64,000 nt of DNA from an uncultured Gammaproteobacteria bacterium (GTDB lineage: Bacteria; Patescibacteriota; Patescibacteriia; Magasanikbacterales; UBA922): the NCBI GenBank assembly GCA_964522405.1, contig CAZFTR010000002.1, positions 8,032 through 72,031 on the forward strand, in the 5' to 3' direction. The position numbers were made by a program, and so were the translations under genes. Positions 1,642 to 54,950 of the stretch are shown here, one piece after another; positions within the stretch are counted from its first letter, which is position 1, and each line of letters opens with the position of its first letter. The notes below the pieces were generated by a model. That model saw nothing but the letters and a program-made list of their open reading frames with translations. It ran no database searches and was not told the origin of the DNA.

Positions 1642-3642
1642 ATGTTCAAGCATTCTAAAAAGTTTTTCTTAACAAGCTTATTAATTTTGCTTTCTTTTGT
1701 TTTTTTAGCAAAAGATGTTAATACTAGTCATAGCAATTATCCCATGAAAGCAAATTATTACCTTGCCCAATTGAAAGACTCCCCAAGTTTTATTGAGGAA
1801 ATTTCAAAATATGACCTGCTTATTTTGACACCCAGTCAAATATACACTCACCCAATAGTGATAAGTAAAATTAAAAAAGCAAATCCAGATATAATCATCT
1901 TGGCTTATGTTCCGAGTCAAAGTTACAATACCAGATATTGGTATTCAAGTCCGGTTTACAGACATTTAAAACCAAAGAAAACCTGGTGGCTGCGTGATTC
2001 TTCAGGTAATCCTATTTCTTCTTGGAAAAATATCAGAAATACTAATATGAGCGAGGAGTGGTCTGATGATTTTCTGGCATTTGTGAACAAGCAAATCGCG
2101 TCTATAAAATATGTTGATGGGATATTTTTTGATATGGTTTCTCATAATATTTCTTGGATAAATCATGGTGATATTGATATAAATCAAGATGGTAAAAAAG
2201 ACACCCCAGAGTTAGTTGATGCAATTTGGAAAAAGAGAACAGAGTATTTTTTTAAAAAAGCAAAGCAGGATTTGAAAACAGACTTAATTGTTATAAATGG
2301 AACTTCAGAGAGTTTTCTTCAAGAGTTTGTAAATGGAAGAATGTTTGAAAATTTTCCAACTCCTTGGGAAGGTGATGGAACCTGGTCAACTATTATGAAT
2401 CGATTGGTTAAAAACATAGAACTAAATCAAACTCCAAAGACCATGATCATAAATAGTAATACTGCAAATACCGGTAAACAAGACGATTATCAAACCATGC
2501 GTTTTGGTCTAACCAGTGCGCTTTTAGAAGATGCCTATTTTTCATTTGATTTTGGTGATGAGAATCATGGACAGCTTTGGTATTATGATGAATATGATGT
2601 TGACTTAGGAGATCCCCAATCTGAATCTTTTTCTGAAAAACAATTATCAAAATATGTCCCGGATATTTGGCGACGTGATTTTGAAAATGGAATTTCTGTA
2701 ATAAACAGTACTTATCAAAAAAGATTGGTTGATCTTGGTGGTGAATATGAAAAAATCTATGGTACTCAAGATAGGCAGGTAAATGATGGCTCAATTGTTT
2801 CAGAAGTTGAACTTGATTCAAACGATGGGATTATTTTATTAAAAACTTTTTCAAATTTTAAAAACTTACTTTTTAAAAATGGATCTTTTGCTAGATTTTT
2901 TGATGATACCGGAAGAAGATTGAGAAATGGTTTCTTTGTTTTTGAAAAAAAATATCCTGGCGGGCAGTATATTGCTCATCTTGATATGAATGGTGATCAG
3001 AAAGAAGACCTGGTTTTGCTCAGAGGTAATAAATTAGTTGTTTTGCGTCATGATGGTATGAGACTGATGAGTAAGTATCCATATGGCGCCAGCTACAAAG
3101 GTCAGATAAAATTATCTATTGGTGACATTGATAAAAATGGAAAAATGGAAATTGTTGTTGCACCAGGTAAGGGAAGTTCAGCTCCAATAAAAATATACTC
3201 AACTTATGGAACAGTTAAAAAGGATCATTGGTATCCGTTCGGAGAAGGTTACAGAGGTGGGTATAGTATTTCCATCAGTGATTTTGGAGAAGAAAATTCA
3301 GAAATTTCAATTGGTACGGGAGTTGGTTTAGAGCCTCGAGTTTATTCTTATGATGGTGATTATAATTTAAAAAGGCATCTCTTAGTTTTCGAAAGAGATT
3401 TTCGTGGTGGAATAAATTTAGCTTCAGGAGACTTAAATGGTGATGGTATAGATGAGTTAGTTGTTGGTGCTGGTGTTGGTAAAAAACCAATTATAAAAAT
3501 ATTTGATAAATTTGGAACTCAGATTTCTTCGTTTGAGGCATACCAGACTAATTCAAAATCAGGAATAGATGTGGGGGTGATGGATATTAATTTTGATGGC
3601 ATTGAAGATATTGTTTCTTTTTCTTCCGGGCTTGATAGATAG
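1642..3642 (+). CDS. secreted protein: GH114-like TIM-barrel glycoside-hydrolase-like N-domain plus C-terminal FG-GAP/VCBS repeats
   Basis: N-terminal signal/TM. N-domain has LAYVPSQSY...WWLRDSSGNPISSW...VDGIFFDMV spacing resembling endo-alpha-1,4-polygalactosaminidase-like (GH114/TM1410) proteins. C-terminus has four FG-GAP-like motifs (DMNGDQKEDLVLL, DIDKNGKMEIVVAPG, DLNGDGIDELVVGAG, DINFDGIEDIV). Confidence 0.6.
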   Translation: MFKHSKKFFLTSLLILLSFVFLAKDVNTSHSNYPMKANYYLAQLKDSPSFIEEISKYDLLILTPSQIYTHPIVISKIKKANPDIIILAYVPSQSYNTRYWYSSPVYRHLKPKKTWWLRDSSGNPISSWKNIRNTNMSEEWSDDFLAFVNKQIASIKYVDGIFFDMVSHNISWINHGDIDINQDGKKDTPELVDAIWKKRTEYFFKKAKQDLKTDLIVINGTSESFLQEFVNGRMFENFPTPWEGDGTWSTIMNRLVKNIELNQTPKTMIINSNTANTGKQDDYQTMRFGLTSALLEDAYFSFDFGDENHGQLWYYDEYDVDLGDPQSESFSEKQLSKYVPDIWRRDFENGISVINSTYQKRLVDLGGEYEKIYGTQDRQVNDGSIVSEVELDSNDGIILLKTFSNFKNLLFKNGSFARFFDDTGRRLRNGFFVFEKKYPGGQYIAHLDMNGDQKEDLVLLRGNKLVVLRHDGMRLMSKYPYGASYKGQIKLSIGDIDKNGKMEIVVAPGKGSSAPIKIYSTYGTVKKDHWYPFGEGYRGGYSISISDFGEENSEISIGTGVGLEPRVYSYDGDYNLKRHLLVFERDFRGGINLASGDLNGDGIDELVVGAGVGKKPIIKIFDKFGTQISSFEAYQTNSKSGIDVGVMDINFDGIEDIVSFSSGLDR

Positions 3643-3763
3643 TTTCTAAAATTAGAGTTAATATTTATTTAATGTTTTTGATTGACAGGTTTTATCTTTT
3701 TGATACAATGTAATTAAAGGGAACTGCTGATAGTTAAACTATTGGTTATCTATTCTTACTACT

Positions 3764-3791
3764 AAAAAACTGTCCATTTGGGCAGTTTTTT
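3764..3791. terminator. bidirectional rho-independent terminator
   Basis: An A-run, then a hairpin of stem CTGTCC/GGGCAG (one G.T pair) with loop ATTT, then a T-run. Lies between convergent genes. Confidence 0.6.
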
Positions 3792-3833
3792 AGTTTAAGG
3801 ATTATTTAATCGTGTTTTTTGTACAATGATATT

Positions 3834-3978
3834 GGTGGATTTTGGGTCAGTAGTTTAATTGGTAAAATAGTTCCTTTGGTAAGAAAAGATCGGAGTTTCC
3901 CGACTCGATGTCGGGATCCCGATGACCATTCGCTTTTAAAAAACAAGTATCGGGACAATTCTCCGCTGATCCACCATC
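3834..3978 (+). ncRNA. tRNA-like structured RNA candidate (non-canonical; possibly pseudo-tRNA, intron-containing tRNA or tmRNA-like fragment)
   Basis: GGGTCAG (3844-3850) pairs with CTGATCC (3966-3972) as a 7-bp acceptor-like stem with one G.T pair, followed by discriminator A and an encoded CCA (3973-3976). A D-arm-like TA GTTT AATTGGTA AAAT with GG in the loop sits at 3851-3868. CGGAG (3891-3895) pairs with CTCCG (3961-3965). Extra helices include TCCCGAT (3918-3924) with ATCGGGA (3949-3955) and an outer GGTGGAT (3834-3840) with ATCCACC (3969-3975). The anticodon arm cannot be folded canonically and the total length is about 133-145 nt. The element is flanked by two terminators and is more G+C-rich than its surroundings. 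Confidence 0.35.
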
Positions 3979-4007
3979 AAAAAACACCTATTTGCTAGGT
4001 GTTTTTT
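3978..4007. terminator. bidirectional rho-independent terminator
   Basis: A7, then stem CACCTA with loop TTTGC and stem TAGGTG (6 perfect bp), then T6. Sits downstream of both the tRNA-like element (+) and the GT4 gene (-). Confidence 0.7.
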
Positions 4008-4027
4008 AATATTTTTGATTATTCATT

Positions 4028-5206
4028 TTAAATATCTTGATGTCTGGTTTTCAAAGATTTCAATTTAACCGGTTTGATATTTTGGTATAGTTTGATAATT
4101 TTTGGAATTGTACTATCCCAACTGTACTCAACTTGAATTGTTTTTCGATTTTGTTCAATTATAGTTTCCTTTTCTTCTTTTGATATTTGCATGAATTCGT
4201 AAATCGCTCTCACAATATCATTAACATTATTTTCTGTAAATATCATTCTGCTATCTTTGATAAGCTCAAGATGTTCTGCAATATTTGAAACCAGGGCAGG
4301 GGTTCCATAGTTCATAGCATCAAGCACTGTAATAGGTAGTCCTTCATTCATGGATGGGTGAACGAGCGCCATTGCATTTGAATACAATTCTTTCAGTATT
4401 TCTCCGGATTGAAAATCAGTAAAAATTATATCGTTACAAATACCTGCTTGTTTTTGAAGTGATGAAACATATTCATCTGTGTAAACAGATCCGCCAACAA
4501 TTGCAAGTTTAAGATTTTTGATTTCCAAGTCATCTTTGTATTCTCTTTTTAAATTACAAAATGCTTCCACAAGCAAGTGCGCGCCTTTGTGAGGAATTAA
4601 GCGCGATATCATGGTAATGTATTTACCTTTTTTTAATCCAAATTCTTTTATTAGTGTTGACCCGGAATCCAGTTTGCTTGGTTTTACAGCATTTGGTATA
4701 CAGTGGGTTTGTTTATCAAATTCTTTTAAACAATATCTTTCCAGGCTTCTTGATATGGTAATTGTTTCATGAGCAAAAGTACAAGCTGACCATTCACCAA
4801 TATGCAAGACAATTCTAGCAAATAAACCCCATTTTTTGTGGTATCTGTCGATTGAGTGAAAGGTTGTAACTACTTTTGTCTTGGGTGCAAAGATTCTAGG
4901 TATCCAAGAGAGAAGAGATGGTCCAACGCCGTGGTAGTGAATTACATCATATTTTTGGAAAACTGCATGGAGAGAAGAAGCAAGAACATGAGTTATGGTA
5001 TCAAAATGTTTAGTGTGAATACTTGGAATGTTGATTGTTTCTACTCCATCAATATTTCCTTCTCTATTTTTGGTATACCAGCCACGATTATAAACAGCAA
5101 CTTGATGTCCAGCTTTAACAAGGTGCTTTGAAAGCCCTTGTACATGTTGCTCAACACCGCCGAAGCTGGCTGGCATTCCTTTTTGTCCGATCATTGCAAT
5201 CTTCAT
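4028..5206 (-). CDS. glycosyltransferase family 4 (GT4)
   Basis: MKIAMIGQKGMPASFGGVEQHV and GT4 C-terminal motifs. The ORF-track start at 5266 is a 20-aa extension. The internal ATG at 5206 lies just downstream of a near-consensus promoter (TTGACA 5245-5240, 17-nt spacer, TAGAGT 5222-5217 on the minus strand), so 5206 is taken as the start. Confidence 0.85.
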   Translation of the reverse strand: MKIAMIGQKGMPASFGGVEQHVQGLSKHLVKAGHQVAVYNRGWYTKNREGNIDGVETINIPSIHTKHFDTITHVLASSLHAVFQKYDVIHYHGVGPSLLSWIPRIFAPKTKVVTTFHSIDRYHKKWGLFARIVLHIGEWSACTFAHETITISRSLERYCLKEFDKQTHCIPNAVKPSKLDSGSTLIKEFGLKKGKYITMISRLIPHKGAHLLVEAFCNLKREYKDDLEIKNLKLAIVGGSVYTDEYVSSLQKQAGICNDIIFTDFQSGEILKELYSNAMALVHPSMNEGLPITVLDAMNYGTPALVSNIAEHLELIKDSRMIFTENNVNDIVRAIYEFMQISKEEKETIIEQNRKTIQVEYSWDSTIPKIIKLYQNIKPVKLKSLKTRHQDI

Positions 5207-5216
5207 AGGATAGATT

Positions 5217-5245
5217 ACTCTAGCATGAATTATTCTATTTGTCAA
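5217..5245 (-). promoter_or_regulatory. sigma70-like promoter for the GT4 gene (TTGACA-17-TAGAGT)
   Basis: Read directly on the minus strand. The -10 element ends about 10 nt before the ATG at 5206, giving a very short leader. Confidence 0.5.
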
Positions 5246-5332
5246 TGGTTTAAATATAGTTTTCAAATCTGATTCCTTTGCTCAGATTTTCTCCTCTTTT
5301 CACCAATAGTTTTGATGAAAATAGGGGATTGG

Positions 5333-5372
5333 GCCGAGGTTCGCGGTGGATTTGACAGGTGCGAACCTCGGC
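5333..5372 (-). terminator. GC-rich hairpin downstream of the GC-island gene
   Basis: Perfect 12-bp inverted repeat GCCGAGGTTCGC/GCGAACCTCGGC with a 16-nt loop, located 37 nt after the stop at 5409 and followed on the minus strand by a T-rich tract. Confidence 0.55.
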
Positions 5373-5408
5373 ATTCGATCATGGTGGGTGTGACGAAAAG
5401 TGTGACGA

Positions 5409-8400
5409 TTACTGGTGCGTGACCCAGCCGGAGCACTGCGGGGGCGCAGTGCCGCCCGACCAGCACTGGAACTTCAGCGCCGGCTTGGAGTCGTCGCAGT
5501 CGCCGAGCTGCTTGGTCGCTCCGTCGTAGTCGGCGTCCTTGGACGAACCGGTGCACTCGGCGTTCGAGGCTTGCGTGTCGTAGAGGCACGCGAACTCCGG
5601 CGAGAGCGACGGGTCTGCTCCGACCTCGGAGGGGATCACGCAGGGCATGGCGCAGCCGTGCGTGTTGGTGTATCCCTCCGGGGTGCCGGTCGTGAGACCG
5701 ACGAGGAAGCAGTCCTTGAAGCTATCGCAGGCGTTGCCCAGGCCGTCGTTGTCGAGGTCGGTCTGGTCCGGGTTGGCCGTGAGCGGGCAGTTGTCGGAGT
5801 TGTCCAGGACGTTGTCGTTGTCGTCGTCCTGGTCCAGCTCGTCGCACTGCCCGTCCGCGTCTGCGTCCGGTTTGTCTGCGTGCTTGCAGCCCGAGTCCGG
5901 GTCGCAGGAGTCGTCCGTGCAGGGGTTCTCGTCGTCGCAGGAGACCGAAGTCCCAGCGCACGAGCTGTCCTCGCAGAAGTCCTCCGCGGTGCACTCGTTG
6001 CCGTCGTCACACGGCTCGGAGTTGCTCTCGAACACGCAGCCCGAGTCCGGGTCGCAGGAGTCGTCCGTGCAGGGGTTCTCGTCGTCGCAGGAGACCGAAG
6101 TCCCAGCGCACGAGCTGTCCTCGCAGAAGTCCTCCGCGGTGCACTCGTTGCCGTCGTCACACGGCTTGCCAGTCTCCGGGAACTCGGCGCACCAGCCATG
6201 GTCGCCGCCGTTCGGCACGCAGGTCGTGACCACGCAGGGGTTCTCGCTCACCTGGCAGTCGGCGAGCTCGAGGCAGCAGTTGTTGATCTGCTCGGAGGAG
6301 CAGATCCCGCTCTCCATGTCACAGGAGTCCTCGGTGCACGCGTCCCCATCGTCGCAGTCCAGGTCTGCTTCACAGCAGTCCGAAACTTCCTGACCCTTGC
6401 ACTCGCCGCCTGAGCACTTGTCGTTCTCGGTGCACATCACTCCGTCGTCGCAGGTCACGCTGTTCGGCGTGTTCTGGCACTTGCCCGACGAGGTGTTGCA
6501 GAAGTCGTCCGTGCAGGGGTTGGAGTCGTCGCAGGAGACCGAAGCCCCCTTGCACTCGCCACCCTGGCAGAAGTCCTCCGCGGTGCAGGAGTTGCCGTCG
6601 TCACACGGCAGCACATTTGGAACTGACAAGCAGCCCGAGTCCGAGTCGCAGAAGTCGTCCGTGCAGGGGTTGGAGTCGTCGCAGGAGACCGAAGCCCCCT
6701 TGCACTCGCCACCCTGGCAGAAGTCCTCCGCGGTGCACTCGTTGCCGTCGTCACACGGCTCGGAGTTGGGCGTGGACACGCAGCCCGAGTCCTGCTCGCA
6801 GTCGTAGTCGTAGCAGGGCTCACCATCGTCGCAGGTGAGCGGGATGCCGGACTGGCATCCGTCCTCAGCGTGACAGGTCTCAAGACCATTGCACGCATCG
6901 GCGTCATCGCACTCGACCTGGGCCCCGAGCACGCATGAGCCGCTTTGGACGTCGCAGGTCTCCACGCCGTTGCACATGTTCGAGTCGTCGCAGTCTGCGT
7001 TTTCCTCGCAGCAGTTTGGGAGTGGAACTCCCGACTGGCAACCCAGAACCGGGTTGCACTGCTCGACCCCGGTGCACTCGTTGCCGTCGTCGCAGACGAG
7101 CGGGATGCCGGGGAGGCACTTGCCGTTCTCGACGTCACAGCTCTCCGCGCCGTTGCACATGTCCGAGTCGTCGCAGTCCGCGTCCACGTCACAGCACTCG
7201 TCCACCTCGGTGAACTGGCACTGATTGTTGACGCAGCTGTCCTCGCTGCACATGTCCGAGTCGTCGCAGTCCGCGTCCACGTCGCAGCAGTTGGGGCCGG
7301 AGGCGATGAAGGTGCAGGCCATCTCGATGGTGTCACAGACATCGAGCGTGCAGGCCGAACCGTCGTCGCAGTCCGCGTGCTTGACACAGCAGTTCTCGAC
7401 CGGGATGGCGAGGCACTCGCCGCTTTCCGAGTCGCAGGAGTCAGTGGTGCACGGGTCTGCGTCGTCGCAGACGATGTCCATGCCTTCCTGGCAGCCTTTG
7501 GTGCTGTCACAGGTCTCGACTCCGTTGCAGGCGTCTCCGTCGTTGCACTTGAGCAGGATGCCGGTCTGGCACTCGCCCTCGTGGCAGGAGTCGTCCTCGG
7601 TGCACGCGTCCCCGTCGTCGCAGGAGGCCCCATTGACTGGGGTGAATTCCTCCTGGTTGACTTTCGGCTTGCAGGCCAGACAGGGGTTGCCGGGGTGGAT
7701 TTTATCGCCCTCCCAGCAGTTGGCCCCGATCAAGCACCACCCAGGCGTCGACGTGAACTCGCACTCACCGGAGCCTTCGTTGTCGCAGCTCTCGGTGGTG
7801 CAGCCCGAGCCGTCATCGCACCACTCCCGGTACTTGTTCTCGGCCGTGCCGTGGTGGATGCACTCGCCGGTTCCCATGCAGTTGTCAAGCGTGCAGGGGA
7901 TGCCGTCATCGCAGAGCGCCACCGAGTAGTCAAAGTTGTTCGTGCAGCCCGCGTCCGGGTCGCACAGCTCCACCTTGCATCCGGATGAACCGGGGCAGGT
8001 GACTGTGGAACCCAGGCATTTGCCGGCCTGGCAGGCGTCGTTTTCGGTGCAGGCGTTGCCGTCGTTGCACGGCGCCGTGTTCACCTCGTAGCTGCACCCG
8101 ACGTCCGGGTCGCACGAGTCGCTGGTGCACTGGTCACCGTCGTCGCAGTCCACGTCCTCGCCGATGCAGATCCCGTCCTCGCACATGTCGTTGACAGTGC
8201 AGGGATCGTCGTCGTTGCAGGACTTGGAATTGGGCTGGTGCTGGCACTGGCCCTCGACGCACTTGTCATCCGTGCACTCGTTGTCGTCGTTGCAGTCGTT
8301 GTCGCAGTTCGGCATGCCGGTCTCGCCCTGGGCGTCCTTGCTGTCGAACGGCTTGACCGCCACGTGCGGGGAGCACAGGTTGACGCCGGCGACGTCGCCC

Positions 8401-8507
8401 GACACCGCGTCCGCAGGGACACAGTCCTCACTGCCGACTTCACAGCCGATAAAAGTGATGGCGATGGCGATGGCGATGGCGACGATGCTCTTGTTCTCGG
8501 TCTTCAT
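5409..8507 (-). CDS. giant cysteine- and aspartate-rich repeat lipoprotein (Dictyostelium-type CTDC-like 4-Cys repeats plus C-terminal thrombospondin type-3 Ca-binding repeats), encoded by a high-GC island
   Basis: 1032 aa with an ATG start. N-terminus MKTENKSIVAIAIAIAITFIGCEV has a signal peptide and a lipobox-like IGC. About 35 tandem units fit C-x-D-x-N-x-C-T-x-D-x-C-x4-G-C-x3-P (for example SCDDSNPCTDDFCDSDSGCLSVPNV). C-terminal DADADGQCDELDQDDDNDNVLDNSDNCPLTANPDQTDLDNDGLGNACD is a classic TSP3 pattern. G+C is about two-thirds against about one-third in the flanks. Antisense ORFs here are artefacts of the GC richness. Confidence 0.8.
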   Translation of the reverse strand: MKTENKSIVAIAIAIAITFIGCEVGSEDCVPADAVSGDVAGVNLCSPHVAVKPFDSKDAQGETGMPNCDNDCNDDNECTDDKCVEGQCQHQPNSKSCNDDDPCTVNDMCEDGICIGEDVDCDDGDQCTSDSCDPDVGCSYEVNTAPCNDGNACTENDACQAGKCLGSTVTCPGSSGCKVELCDPDAGCTNNFDYSVALCDDGIPCTLDNCMGTGECIHHGTAENKYREWCDDGSGCTTESCDNEGSGECEFTSTPGWCLIGANCWEGDKIHPGNPCLACKPKVNQEEFTPVNGASCDDGDACTEDDSCHEGECQTGILLKCNDGDACNGVETCDSTKGCQEGMDIVCDDADPCTTDSCDSESGECLAIPVENCCVKHADCDDGSACTLDVCDTIEMACTFIASGPNCCDVDADCDDSDMCSEDSCVNNQCQFTEVDECCDVDADCDDSDMCNGAESCDVENGKCLPGIPLVCDDGNECTGVEQCNPVLGCQSGVPLPNCCEENADCDDSNMCNGVETCDVQSGSCVLGAQVECDDADACNGLETCHAEDGCQSGIPLTCDDGEPCYDYDCEQDSGCVSTPNSEPCDDGNECTAEDFCQGGECKGASVSCDDSNPCTDDFCDSDSGCLSVPNVLPCDDGNSCTAEDFCQGGECKGASVSCDDSNPCTDDFCNTSSGKCQNTPNSVTCDDGVMCTENDKCSGGECKGQEVSDCCEADLDCDDGDACTEDSCDMESGICSSEQINNCCLELADCQVSENPCVVTTCVPNGGDHGWCAEFPETGKPCDDGNECTAEDFCEDSSCAGTSVSCDDENPCTDDSCDPDSGCVFESNSEPCDDGNECTAEDFCEDSSCAGTSVSCDDENPCTDDSCDPDSGCKHADKPDADADGQCDELDQDDDNDNVLDNSDNCPLTANPDQTDLDNDGLGNACDSFKDCFLVGLTTGTPEGYTNTHGCAMPCVIPSEVGADPSLSPEFACLYDTQASNAECTGSSKDADYDGATKQLGDCDDSKPALKFQCWSGGTAPPQCSGWVTHQ
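5886..6166. repeat. perfect tandem duplication (131 identical bp, period 150 bp) inside the Cys-rich gene
   Basis: 5886-6016 is identical to 6036-6166 when read directly. This duplicates a 50-aa double CTDC unit (SEPCDDGNECTAEDFCEDSSCAGTSVSCDDENPCTDDSCDPDSGC). Confidence 0.85.
6498..6738. repeat. second perfect tandem duplication (~91 bp identical, period 150 bp) inside the Cys-rich gene
   Basis: About 6498-6588 is identical to 6648-6738. The protein repeats CDDGNSCTAEDFCQGGECKGASVSCDDSNPCTDDFC twice. Confidence 0.8.
8457..8480. repeat. (GATGGC)4 hexanucleotide microsatellite in the signal-peptide coding region
   Basis: gatggcgatggcgatggcgatggc encodes the AIAIAIAI stretch of the signal peptide. 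The in-frame 6-bp unit could vary in copy number. Confidence 0.7.
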
Positions 8508-8848
8508 TTGGTCTTAGTCCTCGGAAATAGGGTAGTCGGCCAGGCCGCGTTTTTGGTAGCGACCAGATTCTTGGAATCAGAAATCGAAATCGGAAACTTG
8601 GTCTTGGGATTTTCGTCAATTAGTTTCAGGCAAATGAATATCTGCCCTCCGTATTAGAGAAACAAGAAATTGCAGATCTAATACGAAGAACAGAAAATTA
8701 CCTAAAATCCACCATGATATTGTAAAGAACTAAGAACTTACCCATAATTATTATGAGTAAATTCTATTAGAACTATACCTCAAAACTTGAGATTTAGAAC
8801 AGGCAAGTATAGCATGTTTTAGTGCTTTTGTCAAGCTAAATATGCAAA

Positions 8849-8878
8849 AAATTCGCTAAAATAAGCGAATTTTTGTCT
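8849..8878. terminator. bidirectional rho-independent terminator
   Basis: A6, then stem ATTCGC with loop TAAAATAA and stem GCGAAT, then T5. Lies downstream of the minus-strand gene 8955-10778. Confidence 0.6.
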
Positions 8879-8954: not shown

Positions 8955-10778
8955 CTACTCTGTAGTTGTACCTTTTTCTTGGGCTTTTTGGTCTGTTTTT
9001 AAGCTGGAATCTACATTTTCAACTGAATCAACCAATAAATATCCAGTAAAGCCGTCCATAGCACTTATAGTCACATTTTCCAGTAAGTCTACAATACTGC
9101 CTTTTTGGTCAATTGTTGGAGTAAATCCAAGTTCCATATATAAGCCAATATTTTGTTCAGGAGTAATTGATTTTATGTTCCATCTGATTTGATTATTTAC
9201 TTGGTCATATATTAGATTGTCTCCATGACTAACACTGGTTTTTCCTGAAAATTGAATGTATTCTGGTAAGTCTGCTTTGAAATTTAAGCTGTTAAGATGA
9301 TTAGTAGTGTTTTTTATATCTATCATCAGCCAATATTTTGTTTGTTTTCCGGTTTGGGGCGGTAATGGGCCTCTGCCTAATTGATCACCTTCGTTGGTGT
9401 AGTATCTAGCTTCAGCTAATATTTGAAGATTTGAAGATATTTTAATTTGATCTGTGGTGGATTTGATTTCTAAAATTTGATCATCAAGAGATTCAAGTTT
9501 GGATGAAATGATTGGATTCAGTACTAATTTGGGATTTACTATGTTTGATATTTTTTCTCTTATTGGAATTATGATGTTTATGGTTTTTGATTCTCCAGGT
9601 TTTAACTGTTGTAATTTGGCATTTTCAGTATTGGTTAATTTTATATTCTGAGTTGAATTGATTATCTCTCGGTTCTCTGCACTCAAGGGAATGTTAATAT
9701 TAAGATTTTCAAATGGTATATTTCCTTGATTTTTTAGAGTAATTTCAAGATTTGCAAATTTACCAGGGTTAGCAACCTGATTTTTCCAGGTAGAAATTAT
9801 CTGAAGTTGAGGGTCTAATACCTCTAAGTTTTTTTGATTTTTTGTCTGCGAAAATCGATGATTGTTTATTGATATGATTGGTATAAATTCTAGTGATATT
9901 GAGTTTTCTGTGTCTTGAAGGTCTGCTGAAAGTTGAGTATTTAAATAAGCTGAATTGCCCGGCTTTAATTCATCTAAAAACCAAGAGTTGTTCAATATAT
10001 ATCCTTGGTTTGGTTTAAGATTAGTGATTTCTATTCCTTTTTGCTGCTTTAGTGGAATTTCTATGTTTTTGAGGATGTGTTTATTGTTATTTTTTATTAC
10101 CAGGTCTAATTTTGTCAGACCACCATTTACTATTTTTTGATTTATATCAATATGTGTTTCCAGTACTGAGTTTCTGGGAATGGTTATCAAGCTGGTGGTT
10201 TTAATCCCACTTGTTTGATTTTGGTTATAGGTGTAGGTTAGTTTTGCTGATGTCTTGTAATGTTTATTTGGTTCTCCATAAAATATTCCAGAGACACTTA
10301 AATCTGCTTTTTCTCCCGGCTTGATAGTGTTGAGATTAAAACTGTTTTTTGTCTGGTCATAACTCTCTTTCGGTATGGCCGAATCAAAAACAAATCCATC
10401 TGGAAATTGTAGAATTAAGTGAGCATTTTCAAGTTCAAAGTTCTCATTGTTAATGTAGCTTATTTGGTATTCTATTTCTTCACCACTTAGAATTTTTGAT
10501 TTGGGCTGGATCTCACTTGAAAATTGAGAGATGTTTAGATCTACTAGGTAGTTGCCTCTTGGTTTGTAGCTGTGCCAATAAATGGTTGAAACAAATAAAA
10601 GAATGGTTAAAAGAAGAAGAAAAATGTCAAAAACAAATAGTTTCTTTGCATGAGCATATTTGAGATCATATTTTTTTTGGTAGTATCTATGGGCAAATTT
10701 TATTGGATCTGATAAAAGCTTAAAAAACCACTTTGGTGGCGCAGTTAAAATTTTATTCTTTTCTTTACAATCTTTCAT
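8955..10778 (-). CDS. membrane-anchored extracellular repeat protein (Ig-like/CARDB-DUF11-like beta-sandwich repeats), hypothetical
   Basis: 607 aa. One N-terminal TM (LFVFDIFLLLLTILLFVSTIYW) followed by a long beta-rich domain with recurring N/T/I-rich ~100-aa segments. No catalytic motif recognised. Confidence 0.55.
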   Translation of the reverse strand: MKDCKEKNKILTAPPKWFFKLLSDPIKFAHRYYQKKYDLKYAHAKKLFVFDIFLLLLTILLFVSTIYWHSYKPRGNYLVDLNISQFSSEIQPKSKILSGEEIEYQISYINNENFELENAHLILQFPDGFVFDSAIPKESYDQTKNSFNLNTIKPGEKADLSVSGIFYGEPNKHYKTSAKLTYTYNQNQTSGIKTTSLITIPRNSVLETHIDINQKIVNGGLTKLDLVIKNNNKHILKNIEIPLKQQKGIEITNLKPNQGYILNNSWFLDELKPGNSAYLNTQLSADLQDTENSISLEFIPIISINNHRFSQTKNQKNLEVLDPQLQIISTWKNQVANPGKFANLEITLKNQGNIPFENLNINIPLSAENREIINSTQNIKLTNTENAKLQQLKPGESKTINIIIPIREKISNIVNPKLVLNPIISSKLESLDDQILEIKSTTDQIKISSNLQILAEARYYTNEGDQLGRGPLPPQTGKQTKYWLMIDIKNTTNHLNSLNFKADLPEYIQFSGKTSVSHGDNLIYDQVNNQIRWNIKSITPEQNIGLYMELGFTPTIDQKGSIVDLLENVTISAMDGFTGYLLVDSVENVDSSLKTDQKAQEKGTTTE

Positions 10779-15490: not shown

Positions 15491-18400
15491 ATGAACGATA
15501 TGAAAAAGTTTGGAAAGAAACTTTTTACAGGTGTTGTAACAGGTTTGACTGCTTTTAGCATGTCTTTTGGTGCATTTTTGCCAGCAGTAGTTCATGCTGC
15601 TGAGGAATGTCCTAGCGTGCAAGCAGGCGACTTGATCAAAACAACAGAGAAATCTGATGTTTATTACATCGACGCCAACATGAAAAGAATGCCTTTCCTA
15701 AACTCAGAAGTTTTCCTTTCTCATTATGAGGATTGGACTGGTGTGATGGCAATTCCACCTAGTTGTATTTCTAGTTTCTTGCCATCAACCGGAGTTGTAT
15801 ACAGACCTGGATCTCGTCTTTTTAAGACTGAAGTAGATGCAGCTGTATACGCAGTTCTACCTGGAAACAAAGCTTATCATTTAGCTGATCCAGATGTAGC
15901 TACTGCACTTTACGGTGCTGATTGGGAAAAATCATTACGTACTGTAAGTGACTCATTCACTTTGGCTCTAAATTTTGACGCATCTCAAAAACTTGACATG
16001 TCTGTACCTCACGCAGGTCAGTTGGTTAAGACAGAAGGTGATGATGTTTATTATGTTTCAGCTGAAGGAAAACTACAAAAAGTTGAAGGTGACCTAGCTG
16101 CTGGTTTAGCAGCTGATGTTGAGACTGTTTCACAAACTGTATTTGATGCAGCTGAAATGGATGACGCTGCGAATACTGTGACTGCAAGTTCTCTACTAGG
16201 TAACCCAGATACTGTAACAACTACATCAGGTGATACTGATGCTGGTGATACAGATGGTGATACTGATACTCCAGCAGCAGCTGGTACTCTAACAGTAACA
16301 CTTGCAGGAAACACTCCAGCTCCTGGATACGTAGCAAAGGGTGCATACAATGCAGAATTTGCTAAATTTGTATTCAAGGCAACTGGTGGTGATGTTCGTG
16401 TTGACAAGATTGTTATTAAACGTGATGGTCTTGGTGTTGACGCTGATATTGATGCTGTGCGCCTATATGACGGTGCTATGCAACTTGGTTCAGACCAAGC
16501 ACTTAACACTAACACTCATCTTGCTACTTTCAAGAACCTAAATTGGGATCTTTCAAGTGGTGATGAAAAAACTCTTACTGTAAAAGCTGATACTAACTCA
16601 AGTCCATCAGGTACAAATGATTATTTTGAAATCTCTGAACTTGAATTAGAAGGTGAGGGATCTCTTACAGCAGATCTTCCTCTAGCTGGTAATGCTTTGC
16701 AATACCACAGTGTTACAATGGGTGTACTTGACGTTAATGATCTAACTTCTCCAGGAGCAACTACTGTTATTTCTGGTGCTACTGATGTGCAAGTTCAATG
16801 TTTGAACTTTGATACAAACAGTGCAGAAGGATTTGATGTTAAATCTATTAAGTTGACAAACAATGGTACTATTGGAAACAGTCAAATTAACAAATTTGTA
16901 CTGAAACAAGGTGCTGATGTGTTGGCAACTGTAGATGGCGGATTTGAATCAGATGGTACAGTTACTTTTGACATGAATGATTCTCCTTACTATATTGCTA
17001 AGAGCAAGAGTAAAGATCTATGTGTTTATGTTGATATTGCTGAAGGAATCAGCTTAACTACCAGAACAATTATCATGAATCTTGCTGAGGCAAAAGACGT
17101 GGTAGCTGTTGGTGATAGCTCAAAAGGACAAGTAGTTATTACTATTGATGATGCAACACCTTTCACAGAGCAAACTGGTCAAACAATGACTGTTGACCAG
17201 GGTACTCTAACAGTTGCTTTCAACACTGCTACTGCTCCTGTTGCAGCCGACCTAGTTGATGGTGTGGCTGGAAACAAACTTGGAGCATTCAAATTCACTG
17301 CTGGATCTACTGAAGGTATGAAAGTTACCAGATTTAGACTTACAGCTAGTGGTACTGGTGTTGCTGCTGCTGATCTTTCTAACTTCGAATTATTTGTCTA
17401 CGACCCTGATACATCTGAAGAGACACAAGTTGGAAGTTCTCAAAGTATGAGTGGTTTGAATGTTACATTTGAAGACACAGTAGATGGTCTATTTGACGTA
17501 GCTGCTGGTAAAAATGTAATTGTTCATCTATACGGTGATGTTAACACAGCTGCTACTTGGACAGGAAGTACAACAGTTGCTGGTATGAATTTGTATGTTG
17601 GTGGTACAAATACTAATTTGATTGTAAAGGCTAAAGGTCTTAAATCAGAAAAGTTTGTAGCTGCTGGTGACATTACACTTTCAAGCGTTAACCAGAATGA
17701 TACTGGAGTAGTACAGTTTGGTAATTCAGACAATGGTGCTCTTGTTATCTCTCTAGATAACTCAGCTCCAGGTGCTACATCTATCTCAACTGGTGTTACT
17801 GACTATGATTTTGCTCACTACAGACTTTATGCTACTGGTGAGGATGTCAATGTAACTCAGCTTGTTGTTCGTGCTTATAACACTTCTGGAACAGGAAGTA
17901 CAGCTAGTACAACAGGTGATATCACAAACGTAAAACTTTATGATATTACTGATGCTGATAATCCAGTTCAAGTTGGTACTACAGTTGCTAGTCCAGCTCT
18001 TGGTGTTTCAACATTTAGCTTTACTATGACTGTTCCAAAAGACAGTTACAAAGTTCTAAAAGCTGTTGCTGATATCCCAACTGGAAGTGGATCTGACTTT
18101 ATGCACTTAGACGTTCCTGGTGCTGGAACTGTTGCTGATGATATTTCTTCTACCGGAGCTTATTCTGGTATTGACATCACAGAAACTGGTTCTGCTACTG
18201 GTCGTCTTATGACTGTTGCTACACCAACTATCACAGTAAGTTGGGCATCTGGTGCTACAAATAATGTAGTAACTAACGCCAACGGTGTTACTCTTGGTGC
18301 ACTTCAGTTGACTGCTGGTCAATATGAAAACGTTAAAGTAACAAGTATTAAGATTGAGGCTTCTAGTTCTACTGTTGCTTCTGGCAATTTTGCTGAAGGT

Positions 18401-20002
18401 GCAAGTAGTGCTGACACTGATTTGACAAGCTTTATGCTAGTTGATTCAGAAGATGGTACTCAATATGGTGTTACTAAGAACCTTACAAATGGTACAGCTG
18501 ATTACGCAACATTTAGTGGTATTGATAATCTAACTGTCCCAATGGGTGACACAAAGATTCTATACGTAAAAGCAAATGTTGACGGATCTTCTGGTACTTA
18601 TTATGTAGGTACTGCTGCTATTACAAATATTGTTGCTGCCGGTAAAGTTTCCGGTACTTCAGCAACTATTTCTGGTACAGGTAGTGGTGCTGCTAATGCT
18701 ATTCAATCTGTTGCTACATTGACTTTTGCTACTGACGCTTCTAACCCAAGTGAAAGAGTAATGGCAGTTGGTGCAAGTGGAAATAGTGATCCAGAAACAA
18801 TGCTAGTAATGTCTGTTGACGGTCTTTACGAAGATGTTGATATTACTAAGCTTGTATTCCGCATGAATGCAGCTACTGGTGACTCTGCACAGAACTTCTT
18901 TGCTGATAATGGTCTAAAACTTTATCACAAAGTTGGTACAGGTAGTGAGAAACTAATTGATAGTGCTCCTATTGTATCTTCTACTGCAGCTGTTCTTGGA
19001 GCTTACTATACAGCTACATTCAACATCACTGAGGGTGATCTAAGAGTTGGAGAATCAGATGATAATTTGTTAGTACTTAAAGCTAAATTCAAAGGTACAG
19101 CTGGAAGTGCTCTAACATCTGGTACAAGTCCAAGCTTTATCTTCGGTGACAGCACAAATGCAAATGACAGCTTATTCATTGAAGCTAAAGGTGTAAGTTC
19201 ACAAACAGCACTTGATGACGCACAATACAACACTACAAGTGGTTTGAATGTTGCTGGTAATCAAATTGTTGCTTACAAAGCTTACCCAACATTCACTTAC
19301 GTAAATCCAGGTACTACTCTAGTAAATGGTAGTGAGAACAATGTATACAGATTCAAAGTTAAAGCTAATGGTGGTAATGTTGCTCTTAAACAATTATCAT
19401 TTACTATTGACGTAGTTGATAATGTAGGAACAACAAATGCTGCTGCAACAGCAGACTTTGGTCTTCACACTTGGAAGCTATACCGAATTTCAAAAGACGG
19501 TACAGCTGAAAATACAGATCTTACAGACAATGTTGCTTTGATTACAAATGCAAATGCTAGCATCGAAGGTTCTACAAATGTGCTTGCTACATCATCTGCT
19601 AACACTATCTACTCTGTATGGACAGGTACAAATGAAGAGCAAGTTCCATCAGGAAGTGAATACACTTATGAACTTCGCGCAACTTCAGTTGGATTCTCAA
19701 CTGATGCTGACAACGATTACATTCGTGTACGTCTAGCTAACAGCGACACTACTGAGTTGACACAAAACGATTCTCCATATTATCTAACTGCTAACTCTGA
19801 TTACAGTGATATTATAGAATTGGGTGATTCTAGCCAGGCTAATACAAGTACAGCTACTTTGGTATGGTCTGATAGAAATGCCAATGGACACTCAGCAGCT
19901 ACTGGTACTTATGCCGGTGGTACAGCTACTTCAACAGGTGACTGGTTTAACGGGTACAAGATTAAAGATACTCCAACAAACTACTCACAGTTGGTACGCT
20001 AA
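15491..20002 (+). CDS. large secreted cell-surface protein (S-layer/adhesin-like, T/G/A/V-rich beta-repeat architecture)
   Basis: 1503 aa. Signal peptide MNDMKKFGKKLFTGVVTGLTAFSMSFGAFLPAVVHAAEE. Low-complexity T/S/G/A/V-rich sequence throughout with recurring ~100-aa segments. Strong terminator downstream. Sits after the sigma/anti-sigma pair. Confidence 0.7.
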   Translation: MNDMKKFGKKLFTGVVTGLTAFSMSFGAFLPAVVHAAEECPSVQAGDLIKTTEKSDVYYIDANMKRMPFLNSEVFLSHYEDWTGVMAIPPSCISSFLPSTGVVYRPGSRLFKTEVDAAVYAVLPGNKAYHLADPDVATALYGADWEKSLRTVSDSFTLALNFDASQKLDMSVPHAGQLVKTEGDDVYYVSAEGKLQKVEGDLAAGLAADVETVSQTVFDAAEMDDAANTVTASSLLGNPDTVTTTSGDTDAGDTDGDTDTPAAAGTLTVTLAGNTPAPGYVAKGAYNAEFAKFVFKATGGDVRVDKIVIKRDGLGVDADIDAVRLYDGAMQLGSDQALNTNTHLATFKNLNWDLSSGDEKTLTVKADTNSSPSGTNDYFEISELELEGEGSLTADLPLAGNALQYHSVTMGVLDVNDLTSPGATTVISGATDVQVQCLNFDTNSAEGFDVKSIKLTNNGTIGNSQINKFVLKQGADVLATVDGGFESDGTVTFDMNDSPYYIAKSKSKDLCVYVDIAEGISLTTRTIIMNLAEAKDVVAVGDSSKGQVVITIDDATPFTEQTGQTMTVDQGTLTVAFNTATAPVAADLVDGVAGNKLGAFKFTAGSTEGMKVTRFRLTASGTGVAAADLSNFELFVYDPDTSEETQVGSSQSMSGLNVTFEDTVDGLFDVAAGKNVIVHLYGDVNTAATWTGSTTVAGMNLYVGGTNTNLIVKAKGLKSEKFVAAGDITLSSVNQNDTGVVQFGNSDNGALVISLDNSAPGATSISTGVTDYDFAHYRLYATGEDVNVTQLVVRAYNTSGTGSTASTTGDITNVKLYDITDADNPVQVGTTVASPALGVSTFSFTMTVPKDSYKVLKAVADIPTGSGSDFMHLDVPGAGTVADDISSTGAYSGIDITETGSATGRLMTVATPTITVSWASGATNNVVTNANGVTLGALQLTAGQYENVKVTSIKIEASSSTVASGNFAEGASSADTDLTSFMLVDSEDGTQYGVTKNLTNGTADYATFSGIDNLTVPMGDTKILYVKANVDGSSGTYYVGTAAITNIVAAGKVSGTSATISGTGSGAANAIQSVATLTFATDASNPSERVMAVGASGNSDPETMLVMSVDGLYEDVDITKLVFRMNAATGDSAQNFFADNGLKLYHKVGTGSEKLIDSAPIVSSTAAVLGAYYTATFNITEGDLRVGESDDNLLVLKAKFKGTAGSALTSGTSPSFIFGDSTNANDSLFIEAKGVSSQTALDDAQYNTTSGLNVAGNQIVAYKAYPTFTYVNPGTTLVNGSENNVYRFKVKANGGNVALKQLSFTIDVVDNVGTTNAAATADFGLHTWKLYRISKDGTAENTDLTDNVALITNANASIEGSTNVLATSSANTIYSVWTGTNEEQVPSGSEYTYELRATSVGFSTDADNDYIRVRLANSDTTELTQNDSPYYLTANSDYSDIIELGDSSQANTSTATLVWSDRNANGHSAATGTYAGGTATSTGDWFNGYKIKDTPTNYSQLVR

Positions 20003-40283: not shown

Positions 40284-40345
40284 ATTTTTTTATTTAATTA
40301 CTCGCTTATTTTAGCAAAAAAAAACAAGCTCGGCAATGCTTGTTG

Positions 40346-40380
40346 GCCGCCTGCCTGACTGGAATCGTCAGGCAGGCGGC
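40346..40380 (-). terminator. GC-rich terminator hairpin following the GC-rich NUDIX gene
   Basis: Perfect 14-bp stem GCCGCCTGCCTGAC with loop TGGAATC and GTCAGGCAGGCGGC. On the minus strand it is followed by a second small hairpin CAAGC-attgccga-GCTTG and T9. Confidence 0.7.
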
Positions 40381-40411
40381 TCATGCTGCTGCGTTACTTG
40401 CTCTCGACATC

Positions 40412-40897
40412 CTAGTCGATTTGGGCCAGTGCGATCACTTCGTGGTGATGCGAAACCGTGTCCATTGGCAGGTGGCGTGGGTCTACCCACCCTCCCGGCA
40501 TCTTGGGGTTCATGTCGAGTTCACCGAGAGTAACCTTGATGACCTGGCCGTAGAACCAGCCACGCTCCTCCTGATAGAAGAAGCCGGACTTGAGAGATCC
40601 GCGGCCATCGAGATCCAGGCCGAGCTCTGCTTGCCCGAGCCGGATCAAAGCCTTGTGGAAGTCCTCGCCAGATCGAAGAACCGTGCCCGGACAGTGCAGC
40701 TGTCCAGCGTACGAATCCCCACTTCGGCGGCGAGTCATCCAGACTTTTGGGTGATGCTGAACGGTTTTGACGACCACGACCTCAATGCACATTGTTGGTA
40801 CCAGCCGCGCAATGGCATTGAAGAGTTCAGGTCCGAGTGGATCTTTCGGATCGAGTTGCTTAAGGAACGCAGCAGCAGCTTCTCTCGTGTCGATCAT
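40412..40897 (-). CDS. GDP-mannose mannosyl hydrolase-like NUDIX hydrolase (Gmm/WcaH-like), GC-rich xenolog
   Basis: 161 aa from ATG 40897; the ORF-track start at 40954 is a TTG extension into AT-rich DNA. PGTVLRSGEDFHKALIRLGQAELGL closely resembles E. coli Gmm [25 protein letters not shown]. It is homologous to the adjacent native gene (ELFNAIARL, YAGQLHCPGT, ERGWFYGQVI). Roughly 60% G+C against about 30% for its neighbour. Confidence 0.8.
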   Translation of the reverse strand: MIDTREAAAAFLKQLDPKDPLGPELFNAIARLVPTMCIEVVVVKTVQHHPKVWMTRRRSGDSYAGQLHCPGTVLRSGEDFHKALIRLGQAELGLDLDGRGSLKSGFFYQEERGWFYGQVIKVTLGELDMNPKMPGGWVDPRHLPMDTVSHHHEVIALAQID

Positions 40898-40980
40898 TTG
40901 TTGACTCCTTGAGCTGCTGGATTTTAGACTAGCATAATTGTATAAAAAAATCAAGCCTACAGCCTGATTTTGTTTAGATT

Positions 40981-41484
40981 TTATTTGATCTTGTTTTTTA
41001 CTGCTGGCAAGATCCTATCTTTGTGATGTTTTACAAGTGGAACAGGTAATTTATTTATGGGCCACCACTGACCAGCTTTTGTTGGATCAGACTTTATTTC
41101 TATAGTATATATAATTGATTGAAACCAGCCACGTGCTTCATCATGAAAAAAATGCCCCACGTATTTGGGTTGGTTTTTGATAGTTGTACCCATTTCATTT
41201 TTTAAAACCCTTTTGATTGAATCTATTTCAAGTTCACCTTTTCTGATAATTGTTCCTGGGCAGTGCCATTCGCCGGCGTAGCAGTCTGAATTTGATCTTT
41301 TTGAAAGCCAGACATATGTTTGATCTTTTTCTTTTTTTAGAACAACTGCTTCAACTGTGGAGGTAGTGTATAATCTTGCTATCGCTTCAAACAATTCTTT
41401 TCCCAGATTTTCTTTTGGTTTGATTTGGTTGAGAATTTGAGCAGCTTGTTTTTGTAGATTTTCTGACATAAGATTTGTATTCAT
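40981..41484 (-). CDS. GDP-mannose mannosyl hydrolase-like NUDIX hydrolase (Gmm/WcaH-like), native AT-rich copy
   Basis: 167 aa from ATG 41484 (the ORF-track start is TTG). ELFEAIARLYT, YAGEWHCPGTIIRKGELEIDSIKRVLKNEMG, EARGWFQSIIYTIEI. Overlaps the rfbG stop by 1 nt. Confidence 0.75.
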   Translation of the reverse strand: MNTNLMSENLQKQAAQILNQIKPKENLGKELFEAIARLYTTSTVEAVVLKKEKDQTYVWLSKRSNSDCYAGEWHCPGTIIRKGELEIDSIKRVLKNEMGTTIKNQPKYVGHFFHDEARGWFQSIIYTIEIKSDPTKAGQWWPINKLPVPLVKHHKDRILPAVKNKIK

Positions 41485-53782: not shown

Positions 53783-53847
53783 AAATATCTTGAGTAGAGA
53801 TATTTTTTTTAAAATTCATTTAAAATTTAGCACATAGGCAGGGGGTC

Positions 53848-53860
53848 GTGTCACTCTCCT
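53848..53860. repeat. left 13-bp inverted repeat GTGTCACTCTCCT bracketing GC-island 3
   Basis: Perfect reverse complement of 54951-54963 (AGGAGAGTGACAC). An imperfect extension to about 22 bp shares CCCC. Confidence 0.8.
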
Positions 53861-53877
53861 CGATCCCCCTTGGTAGC

Positions 53878-53920
53878 TGCCCGCTATGCGGGCCTTCTGG
53901 TTGTGGCTGGCCGCTGCCAG
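53878..53920 (-). terminator. two GC-rich hairpins downstream of GC-island 3 gene
   Basis: GCCCGC-TAT-GCGGGC (53878-53892) and GGCTGGC-CGCT-GCCAGCC (53903-53920), immediately after the stop at 53922. Confidence 0.5.
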
Positions 53921-53921
53921 C

Positions 53922-54926: not shown

Positions 54927-54950
54927 TTCTGATCCTCTTTGAGGGGTTTT

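Follow-up and report, generated by a model that had tools for sequence, protein, structure and literature searches.

The 64-kb window examined here (the window being the whole stretch of DNA that was analysed) belongs to an AT-rich genome of Candidatus Magasanikbacteria, a lineage of the candidate phyla radiation (CPR, or Patescibacteria), with a G+C content (GC) of ∼33%. One of its genes, which encodes a cysteine-rich lipoprotein of 1032 residues with CTDC repeats and thrombospondin type-3 (TSP3) repeats, is compositionally foreign to this AT-rich host. We think it somewhat probable that the gene is a horizontally acquired, little-ameliorated one-gene cassette for a surface stalk or adhesin, set in a variable slot of a cell-surface locus, that its product is a lipid-anchored, disulfide-linked rod with Ca2+-binding TSP3 repeats, and that its immediate source was, most likely, an exchange of units within the CPR.

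The compositional evidence is direct. Over successive 500-nt intervals the GC content was 0.60–0.67 across ∼5250–8500, compared with ∼0.30–0.35 on either side, and the island so defined contains a single intact open reading frame (ORF).
5324–8550, no strand assigned: high-GC island of 3.2 kb (GC ∼0.65, background ∼0.33), from the composition profile and likelihood change points at 5324 and 8550
5409–8507, minus strand: coding sequence (CDS) of the CTDC/TSP3 cysteine-rich lipoprotein, 1032 residues, ATG start, from the ORF list, Pfam and codon statistics

The GC content of the gene was 0.648, and that of its first, second and third codon positions (the last termed GC3) was 0.56, 0.49 and 0.894, respectively. 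GC3 was uniform along the gene, signal peptide and tail included. The preliminary description of this DNA had reported a high-GC island with foreign codon usage, which our measurements bear out; its wording that third positions are almost all G or C corresponds to a GC3 of 0.894 overall and 0.78–0.95 along the gene. Elsewhere GC3 was 0.20–0.27 in the immediate neighbours and 0.18–0.31 in the ∼47 other genes of the window. Since the CTDC protein re-encoded with host codon usage would have a GC content of 0.43, against the 0.648 observed, the anomaly lies in codon usage and not in an amino-acid content rich in Cys, Asp and Gly. Relative synonymous codon usage (RSCU) of the gene correlated negatively with that of host genes (r = −0.70) and positively with that of genes from high-GC CTDC-bearing contigs (r = 0.71–0.82) and from high-GC loci of Magasanikbacteria type (r = 0.79–0.89); codon-usage matching was unable to separate CPR from non-CPR high-GC donors. 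The prevailing codons (GAG, CCG, GCG, TCG, ACG and GGC) are those of a high-GC mutational background, unlike the outcome of translational selection in an AT-rich genome. The enrichment also covers non-coding edges, namely ∼85 nt of the 3′ trailer and ∼45 nt of the 5′ leader.

The encoded protein contains 143 Cys (13.9%) and 15.5% Asp and has the domain order lipobox, low-complexity linker of ∼45 residues, ∼28 CTDC modules, TSP3 repeats and orphan tail.
8442–8507, minus strand: signal peptide with lipobox, MKTENKSIVAIAIAIAITFIG followed by C22, by inspection and from homologue N-termini
5865–8306, minus strand: array of ∼28 four-Cys CTDC units, residues 68–881, from PF00526, a unit hidden Markov model (HMM) and AlphaFold2 (AF2)
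∼7623–7739, minus strand: non-CTDC Cys module with an NPCxxC motif, residues ∼257–295, from the homologue alignment
5886–6016 and 6036–6166, minus strand: two 131-nt stretches, 100% identical, with a 150-nt period (a two-unit module), by self-BLASTN
5712–5885, minus strand: TSP3 repeats, residues 875–932, from phmmer against PDB, Pfam TSP_3 and the matches of a C-terminal query
5412–5711, minus strand: orphan C-terminal tail, residues 933–1032, 8 Cys, from Pfam, homology search and AF2

The assignment to the CTDC family, proposed earlier, was confirmed by Pfam Dicty_CTDC (PF00526), which scored 120.3 bits against a cut-off of 27 (E = 2.5e-35, 10 stretches); the protein thus adds one more member to a repeat family that is already known and very large. 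The four-Cys units are real, and the previous count of ∼35 was too high: an HMM built from the protein's own units found 26 clear and 2–3 degenerate ones across residues 72–881, and residues 68–875 hold 129 of the Cys. The tandem units are ∼24–26 residues long, their Cys columns are invariant in a 53-sequence homologue alignment, and alignment with the 52 homologues showed an alternating two-unit super-repeat, CDDGNPCTxDxCDPxxGC followed by CDDGNxCTxxDxCxxGxC. The CxxC module has C276 and C279 invariant in all 53 aligned homologues, and it is present three times in the protein of the relative L001 (see below). The exact 131-nt repeat pair points to a recent in-situ tandem duplication and therefore to an array whose length is still changing; the copy number of this 150-nt-period repeat is one that a short-read assembly could misestimate.

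TSP3 repeats had also been predicted, and this was upheld. With phmmer against PDB the segment matched COMP (3fby, E = 4.9e-15) as well as TSP-2 and TSP-1, and Pfam TSP_3 (PF02412) scored 27.8 bits against a gathering score of 25 on the isolated residues ∼868–941 (E = 2.1e-6, 2 stretches), while TSP_3 went unreported in the Pfam scan of the full-length protein. A query of the C-terminal 157 residues gave four database matches, all four with PF02412. From their conserved Asp ligands the repeats would be expected to bind Ca2+. The last ∼100 residues had no Pfam match and one weak partial homologue only, and AF2 gave this tail a predicted local distance difference test (pLDDT) score below 50. The suggested link to TIGR02232 fell away, as a scan of the protein against NCBIfam, that model included, returned no family at E ≤ 1.

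The signal region has K within its first seven residues, an uncharged h-region and [AGS]-C with the Cys at position 22. It fits the classical PROSITE-type lipoprotein pattern, which we take to be a K/R n-region, a lipobox and a Cys at 15–35 and which we applied by eye; almost every related CTDC protein of the CPR likewise starts with a hydrophobic segment ending in G/A/S-C, as does P0001, the best match in the databases, so that the lipoprotein-type signal noticed earlier holds. In the AF2 model, based on the 53-sequence alignment, canonical units had pLDDT above 90 and each formed a beta-hairpin; the predicted TM-score (pTM) of 0.31 is what an extended rod might be expected to give. The model says nothing useful on the N-terminal linker or the final 150 residues. 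When it was searched against solved structures, the sole significant match was the Cys-rich heavy chain of the Entamoeba Gal/GalNAc adhesin.

The surroundings of the gene are those of a cell-surface locus. On one side lie a GT4 glycosyltransferase gene (4028–5206/5266) and a gene for a GHL15/FG-GAP protein, and on the other a gene for a DUF11/CARDB surface protein (8955–10778) and one for an HTH_17 regulator; thus only one flank is a glycosyltransferase, not both as originally read. With GT4 as the anchor we collected 80 loci, essentially all from Magasanikbacteria (the window's own genome is absent from them, and the best GT4 identity is 62%), and the related Candidatus Magasanikbacteria share a conserved backbone, HTH17-DUF11-[slot]-GT4-GHL15/FG-GAP. 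The slot is empty in most relatives, including the closest by GT4 identity (L003 and L004), with a gap of 67–264 bp between DUF11 and GT4. It is filled with a Cys-rich CTDC gene in the window and in L008, L018, L023 and L030; L013 and L033 have a CTDC gene after DUF11. In Candidatus Magasanikbacteria L001, the genome from which L008 also comes, a 687-kb contig has the identical gene order HTH17-DUF11-CTDC-GT4-GHL15, with flanking orthologues 38–77% identical to those of the window and a CTDC gene of GC3 0.84 on a background of 0.32–0.49. At least six other genomes carry a GC3-rich CTDC lipoprotein gene in or just after the slot, and Azambacteria have several CTDC homologues. The earlier statement that CPR-like genomes offer no obvious counterpart is thereby overturned: besides L001, with its same gene order, at least five more related genomes have one, as do Azambacteria several times over.

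Filled slots occurred in at least three places on a neighbour-joining tree of the backbone, which is star-like and without bootstrap support, and five of the seven slot genes share the architecture of lipobox, CTDC and TSP3. The GC3 of CTDC-type genes across loci ranged from 0.33 (L078) through 0.64–0.70 (L033, L013, L018 and L015) and 0.78 (L070) to 0.82–0.98 in the others, independently of host GC, and this spread looks like acquisitions of differing ages. GC3 outliers numbered 29 among 865 ORFs, in 21 of 78 loci, and ∼17 of the 29 are Cys-rich secreted proteins or lipoproteins. In the close pair L033 and L115 the CTDC gene was inherited together with its flanks and keeps pace with DUF11 in its divergence (86% nucleotide identity at CTDC/DUF11 compared with 94.8% further downstream), with a GC3 of 0.64 in both.

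Two side observations belong here. The locus L078 has, at 3544–6087, a CTDC-like Cys-rich lipoprotein gene (847 residues, 9.3% Cys) with a GC3 of 0.33 and no match to the leader described below; it is the only copy that looks ameliorated or native, and a high GC content is therefore not required for the CTDC family. Loci of Magasanikbacteria type with GC 0.58–0.67 exist. Among them L073, L077 and L082 have a Magasanikbacteria-type backbone at GC 0.62–0.67 and are labelled 'uncultured Gammaproteobacteria' or 'Acutalibacteraceae'; either these are errors of labelling or binning, or high-GC members of the lineage exist, and the answer bears on the identity of the donor.

The inserted DNA has its own signals for expression, and the functional unit probably extends over ∼5246–8846, comprising a host-type promoter, a structured AT-rich leader of ∼300 nt, a Shine-Dalgarno (SD) site, the GC-rich CDS and a GC-rich 3′ hairpin.
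8847–8874, no strand assigned: AT-rich hairpin with T/A runs 3′ of the DUF11 gene, probable terminator and upstream limit of the inserted unit, from a hairpin/terminator scan
8806–8834, minus strand: promoter-like site of sigma-70 type in AT-rich DNA, TTGACA-17-TATACT with TG (11/12 matches), from a promoter scan
8508–8805, minus strand: 5′ leader of ∼300 nt with hairpin 1, TCTTTACAATATCATGGTGG (8709–8728) and long hairpin 2 (8641–8694), from motif search and folding
8518–8522, minus strand: SD-like GAGGA, 10 nt 5′ of the ATG, by direct reading
5333–5372, minus strand: 12-bp perfect GC-rich hairpin (5333–5344/5361–5372) in the GC-rich 3′ trailer 5322–5408 (GC 0.56), by folding (z −4.4)
5217–5245, minus strand: promoter-like site of GT4, a gene whose true start is likely M21 at 5206; it bounds the inserted unit on the downstream side, from a promoter scan and consensus

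A promoter consensus, TTGACAAA...TGCTATAAT, is found in related genomes 5′ of GT4 and of CTDC genes. Since two similar promoter strings bracket the island (2 matches against 0.09 expected), a target-site or promoter duplication was considered; we rejected this, since the same consensus also precedes GT4 in relatives with an empty slot. At the other end, the GC hairpin that had been described as the gene's own terminator is real, and it is not a canonical intrinsic terminator: measured against the usual form (a GC-rich stem, a loop of 3–8 nt and a U tract directly 3′) its loop measures 16 nt, the nearest U-rich run begins ∼13 nt downstream and is not adjacent, and the terminator scan made no call.

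All slot CTDC genes share one order of leader elements: promoter, short hairpin, GCTCTTTACAAnTGAGGTGGA (8728–8709 in the window), long hairpin, spacer and AAGGAG-type SD site. The stem of the short hairpin varies in sequence between genomes and covaries. The long hairpin has 18–30 bp and a wholly different sequence in each genome, with z from −5.3 to −8.1 in eight leaders; in the window it has 18 bp, three of them G.U pairs on the sense strand. Similarity among the 5′ untranslated regions (5′-UTRs) of slot genes reaches past the leader hairpin toward the SD site. A strict form of the leader motif matched once in the window (0.00 expected). When a sequence model of the leader core was run against 1.37 Mb of related loci, its matches were limited to the slot leaders and two weak ones, in L011, where the element lies 5′ of another GC-rich CTDC gene, and in L049; in the non-CPR high-GC contigs examined the model had no match. 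A leader-like element was also found 5′ of a GC-rich non-CTDC gene in the Azambacteria locus L002. Leaders lie at ∼5950–6209 in L008, ∼6935–7152 in L030, ∼1535–1776 in L033, ∼2590–2725 in L013, ∼6855–7127 in L023, ∼7560–7732 in L018, ∼20881–21060 (minus strand) in L011 and ∼8299–8528 in L002. The leader was thus met only 5′ of GC-rich genes, mostly those of CTDC lipoproteins, in Magasanikbacteria and once in Azambacteria. A metagenome scan with a two-part leader pattern gave 28 stretches, of which two were true leaders, in L100 (the same genome as L030) and in L115 (the close relative of L033 mentioned above), and the others chance matches. Rfam had nothing at gathering score in the window, the leader giving chance-level matches only, and on a long hairpin of L002 a miRNA-precursor match far below threshold. 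The structured leader is apparently undescribed and tied to GC-rich cargo.

Two further elements were seen during this search. At ∼5000–5456 (minus strand) of L049 a leader-like GTTCTTTACAATTGG... comes before ∼400 nt of GC-rich sequence with no CTDC protein, which may be a remnant or another cargo. The Azambacteria locus L002 has a distinct element of ∼120 nt, GAATTACGAAA..GCGTTGA...GAGGGGACT..CGGAGCGCGACGGCGCGAGTATTGAGCAAAAATTCAACAGAATTTTTGCGTGCCCCGAA, at ∼4600–4730, ∼9670–9800 and ∼15990–16120 (minus strand), ∼200–330 nt 5′ of three GC-rich genes, of which two encode CTDC proteins; two of its copies are nearly identical, and no Rfam family matches it.

Homology searches with the CTDC protein returned 4767 matches at E ≤ 1e-5, mostly from high-GC metagenome-assembled genomes (MAGs) of 'Deltaproteobacteria', Myxococcales or Binatia; two CTDC matches were annotated as CPR bacteria. 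The best full-length matches sit in contigs of uniform GC content (0.57–0.68). Of the earlier proposal of a very recent horizontal gene transfer (HGT) from a high-GC bacterium, the foreign codons and the home of the family in high-GC bacteria stand, and a single recent transfer from an identifiable donor does not, given identities of at most 31–40% and a leader shared with the slot genes of other CPR genomes. ARAGORN found no tRNA able to serve as an integration site in the window. An integron gene cassette or a shared attachment (att) site was also considered and rejected: the islands are dispersed, their hairpins are perfect and unrelated, the target gene has its own promoter and there is no nearby integrase. 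Literature searches on CTDC proteins in CPR, on HGT or GC content in Magasanikbacteria and on cysteine-rich surface proteins of Patescibacteria found nothing relevant.

The island is not unique in the window, where two further one-gene GC islands occur (∼40.3–40.9 kb and ∼53.8–55.0 kb).
53922–54926, minus strand (island 53801–55000): sister GC island with a gene for a 334-residue protein, GC 0.65, GC3 0.887, from composition and RSCU
40412–40897/40954, minus strand (island 40301–40954): sister GC island with a NUDIX gene, GC 0.54–0.57, GC3 0.61–0.64, from composition and Pfam

The RSCU of the 334-residue gene correlated with that of the CTDC gene at r = 0.91. Two independent Logan assemblies, of the runs SRR8146440 and SRR8146441, reproduce 53483–55712 at 100% identity, both junctions of this island included. 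Exact look-ups of the CTDC, DUF11, GHL15 and GT4 (M21 start) proteins found nothing on record. Each of the three islands has a GC-rich trailer and a GC hairpin, and the hairpins are unrelated to one another; that of the NUDIX island is a 14-bp GC hairpin of its own (40346–40380), followed by a host-like hairpin and a T run. The GC-rich NUDIX protein is 38.6% identical to the product of the adjoining upstream AT-rich NUDIX gene (40981–41487). The 334-residue family is small: among 5.8 billion proteins it has just 10 homologues, and a Pfam IMPase domain is present in one of these. Its gene lies antisense between Aldolase_II and NTP-transferase genes, and a 40%-identical homologue on the AT-rich contig of L085 is co-oriented between the same kinds of genes; the case looks like an in-situ replacement by a xenologue. 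Two milder GC rises (0.39–0.41) at 15491–20002 and 28866–31655 correspond to large genes for proteins of 1503 and 929 residues with N-terminal hydrophobic segments; since their GC3 is host-like (0.20 and 0.29), we do not regard them as foreign, and the rise reflects amino-acid composition.

Because high-GC codon usage has barely been ameliorated, the coding DNA entered horizontally, and long after the split from the sampled relatives. The flanking proteins differ by 40–70% between genomes, so that synonymous sites are saturated, and a gene passively inherited from the common ancestor should have equilibrated to a GC3 of ∼0.25. Exchange of the whole promoter–leader–gene unit within the CPR is most likely, because the same leader and architecture are found in other CPR genomes, and the immediate donor may be a high-GC CPR relative, the CTDC family being ultimately at home in high-GC bacteria. 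Circulation within the CPR agrees with a report of HGT into streamlined Patescibacteria genomes, in which single genes and islands are transferred mostly within the phylum (PMC12455944). Several points weigh against this explanation. Homologue identity is at most 31–40% and repeat-driven, and no donor was identified. None of the three islands has a mobility gene beside it, and none shows an att site, a duplicated target or a terminal motif in common with the others. The GC3 of CTDC genes (to 0.98 in L004) exceeds the background of the sampled high-GC CPR loci (GC3 ≤ 0.79), which argues that some of the cassettes, at least, came from outside the CPR. The leaders are strongly diverged, with ∼20 nt conserved and wholly different hairpin sequences, and the promoter–leader unit looks old and fits poorly with an unameliorated CDS. 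The junctions confirmed in independent assemblies are those of a sister island only and not those of the target at 5324 and 8550. Because of the GC3 excess a serious rival, although one that we consider unlikely, is that high-GC coding DNA was captured directly from outside the CPR (from Myxococcota, 'Deltaproteobacteria' or a Binatia-like bacterium) and integrated just downstream of a resident host promoter–leader, independently in several lineages. In its favour, the best full-length homologues lie in non-CPR high-GC MAGs where their composition is native, and the island GC3 of 0.89 (to 0.98 in L004) is above any sampled CPR background. The leader model also had no match in the non-CPR contigs, the leader precedes GC-rich non-CTDC cargo in L049 and Azambacteria L002, and each island is accompanied by a GC-rich trailer with a donor-type hairpin. 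Such capture, however, demands repeated and precise integration behind the same leader with no recombinase or att site visible. Against it also stand the 5′-UTR similarity that extends beyond the leader hairpin toward the SD site and the lipobox-CTDC-TSP3 architecture common to slot genes, and the documented transfers into Patescibacteria are mostly intra-phylum (PMC12455944).

That the gene is instead a long-time resident whose GC-rich codons are maintained, either by GC-biased gene conversion in the array or by selection for rare codons or mRNA structure that slow translation of a protein with 143 Cys, seems to us improbable. The same slot, leader and architecture do recur across deeply diverged genomes (flanking proteins 30–60% identical), GC3 is high whatever the host GC, L033 and L115 show stable inheritance with GC3 0.64 in both, and the exact internal duplications amount to ongoing intragenic recombination. 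However, the unrelated and non-repetitive 334-residue gene has the same codon signature (r = 0.91), the non-coding flanks too are GC-rich, and outside the array GC3 is just as high in the signal peptide and the tail. The dominant G-ending codons are not those favoured by translational selection in an AT-rich genome, the slot is empty in most relatives, and L078 carries a CTDC-type lipoprotein gene at a host-like GC3 of 0.33. An assembly chimera, a fragment of a high-GC contaminant or an engineered insertion, the first and last of which the preliminary description had left as options, is hardly credible. What might suggest it are the extreme compositional step, junction support that comes from the sister island and not from the target itself, the lack of any record of the exact protein elsewhere and internal exact repeats that could mislead assemblers. 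The insert, however, is one intact gene with leader and trailer, directly downstream of a host-type promoter and lineage-specific leader; syntenic host gene order resumes on both sides; the same arrangement is found in independent MAGs of other studies; and the junctions of the sister island are reproduced at 100% identity in assemblies of two separate runs. For these reasons we rate all three of these origins as very improbable for the target island.

On the explanation we favour, a cassette acquired by exchange within the CPR, the protein would be secreted by the Sec route, acquire a lipid at Cys22 and stay attached to the outer side of the membrane. The CTDC modules, each probably with two disulfides, would form a stiff, extended stalk that projects the Ca2+-binding TSP3 repeats and the orphan tail away from the cell at its distal end. 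Our best guess is a role in adhesion or in the surface architecture of a putative episymbiont, because the neighbours are surface-protein and glycan-assembly genes, the gene evolves fast and its distribution follows a gain-and-loss pattern.

Several known systems resemble parts of this arrangement. Bacterial Dicty_CTDC 'cysteine-rich repeat' proteins share the alternating A/B units and the invariant CxxC module; they are of comparable size, use high-GC codons and in many cases have an N-terminal lipobox, as in P0001. They differ in sequence (31–40% identity) and in setting, the window copy being preceded by a promoter and leader of CPR type and housed in a CPR genome that is AT-rich, and PF02412 was among the precomputed domains in none of 120 of the matches listed. 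The founders of PF00526, the CTDC-repeat proteins of Dictyostelium, are extracellular, disulfide-rich and structural. The window protein is like them in its 24-residue four-Cys repeat, well above the Pfam threshold, and unlike them in kingdom, in its lipoprotein anchor, in the lack of common non-repeat domains and in GC-rich rather than AT-rich coding. In animals TSP3 repeats wrap Ca2+ ions. Thrombospondins and COMP (PF02412; PDB 3fby, 1yo8, 2rhp and 1ux6) matched significantly and share the motif DxDxDGxxDxxDNCPxxxNPDQxDxDxDGxGxxCD with the window protein, which in contrast has ∼2 repeats instead of 7–13, no C-terminal lectin-like domain and a bacterial context. The Gal/GalNAc lectin heavy chain of Entamoeba histolytica (PDB 9gjc and related entries) matched the AF2 fold (E = 1.3e-6, prob 0.96) and is likewise a cysteine-rich, elongated region of a surface adhesin, but TM-scores of ∼0.05 and identities of 18–20% speak for an analogy of disulfide-rich modules and not for homology. 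Individually transferred genes and islands in streamlined CPR genomes are common to our case and the Patescibacteria report (PMC12455944); the extreme contrast (GC3 0.89 against 0.25), the recurrent slot cargo and the coupled structured leader are features of our case not found in the passages of that report that were consulted.

HGT into CPR genomes and the CTDC repeat family are already known. Less expected are the extreme, unameliorated composition in a genome of 33% GC and the recurrence of the same class of cargo at one slot in several deeply diverged genomes. A practical consequence is that composition-based bin cleaning would throw out genuine GC-island genes as contamination. The conserved leader offers a handle on regulation and a search key for more cassettes. 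As a tentative idea, itself rather doubtful, it may be an undescribed CPR cis-element that marks a dedicated expression or exchange platform for foreign GC-rich surface-protein cassettes, that is, swappable host-attachment adhesin genes exchanged among CPR lineages (Magasanikbacteria and Azambacteria) or taken from high-GC neighbours. The tension between a diverged leader and an unameliorated CDS is relevant to the way in which streamlined episymbionts gain their genes and to the identity of the donors. The usual view is that CPR bacteria live attached to other cells, and to our knowledge the molecules of this attachment are largely unknown; a putative lipid-anchored disulfide- and Ca2+-stabilized rod of ∼1000 residues, gained, lost and swapped at a fixed slot, would be a concrete candidate for contact with the host or with a matrix.

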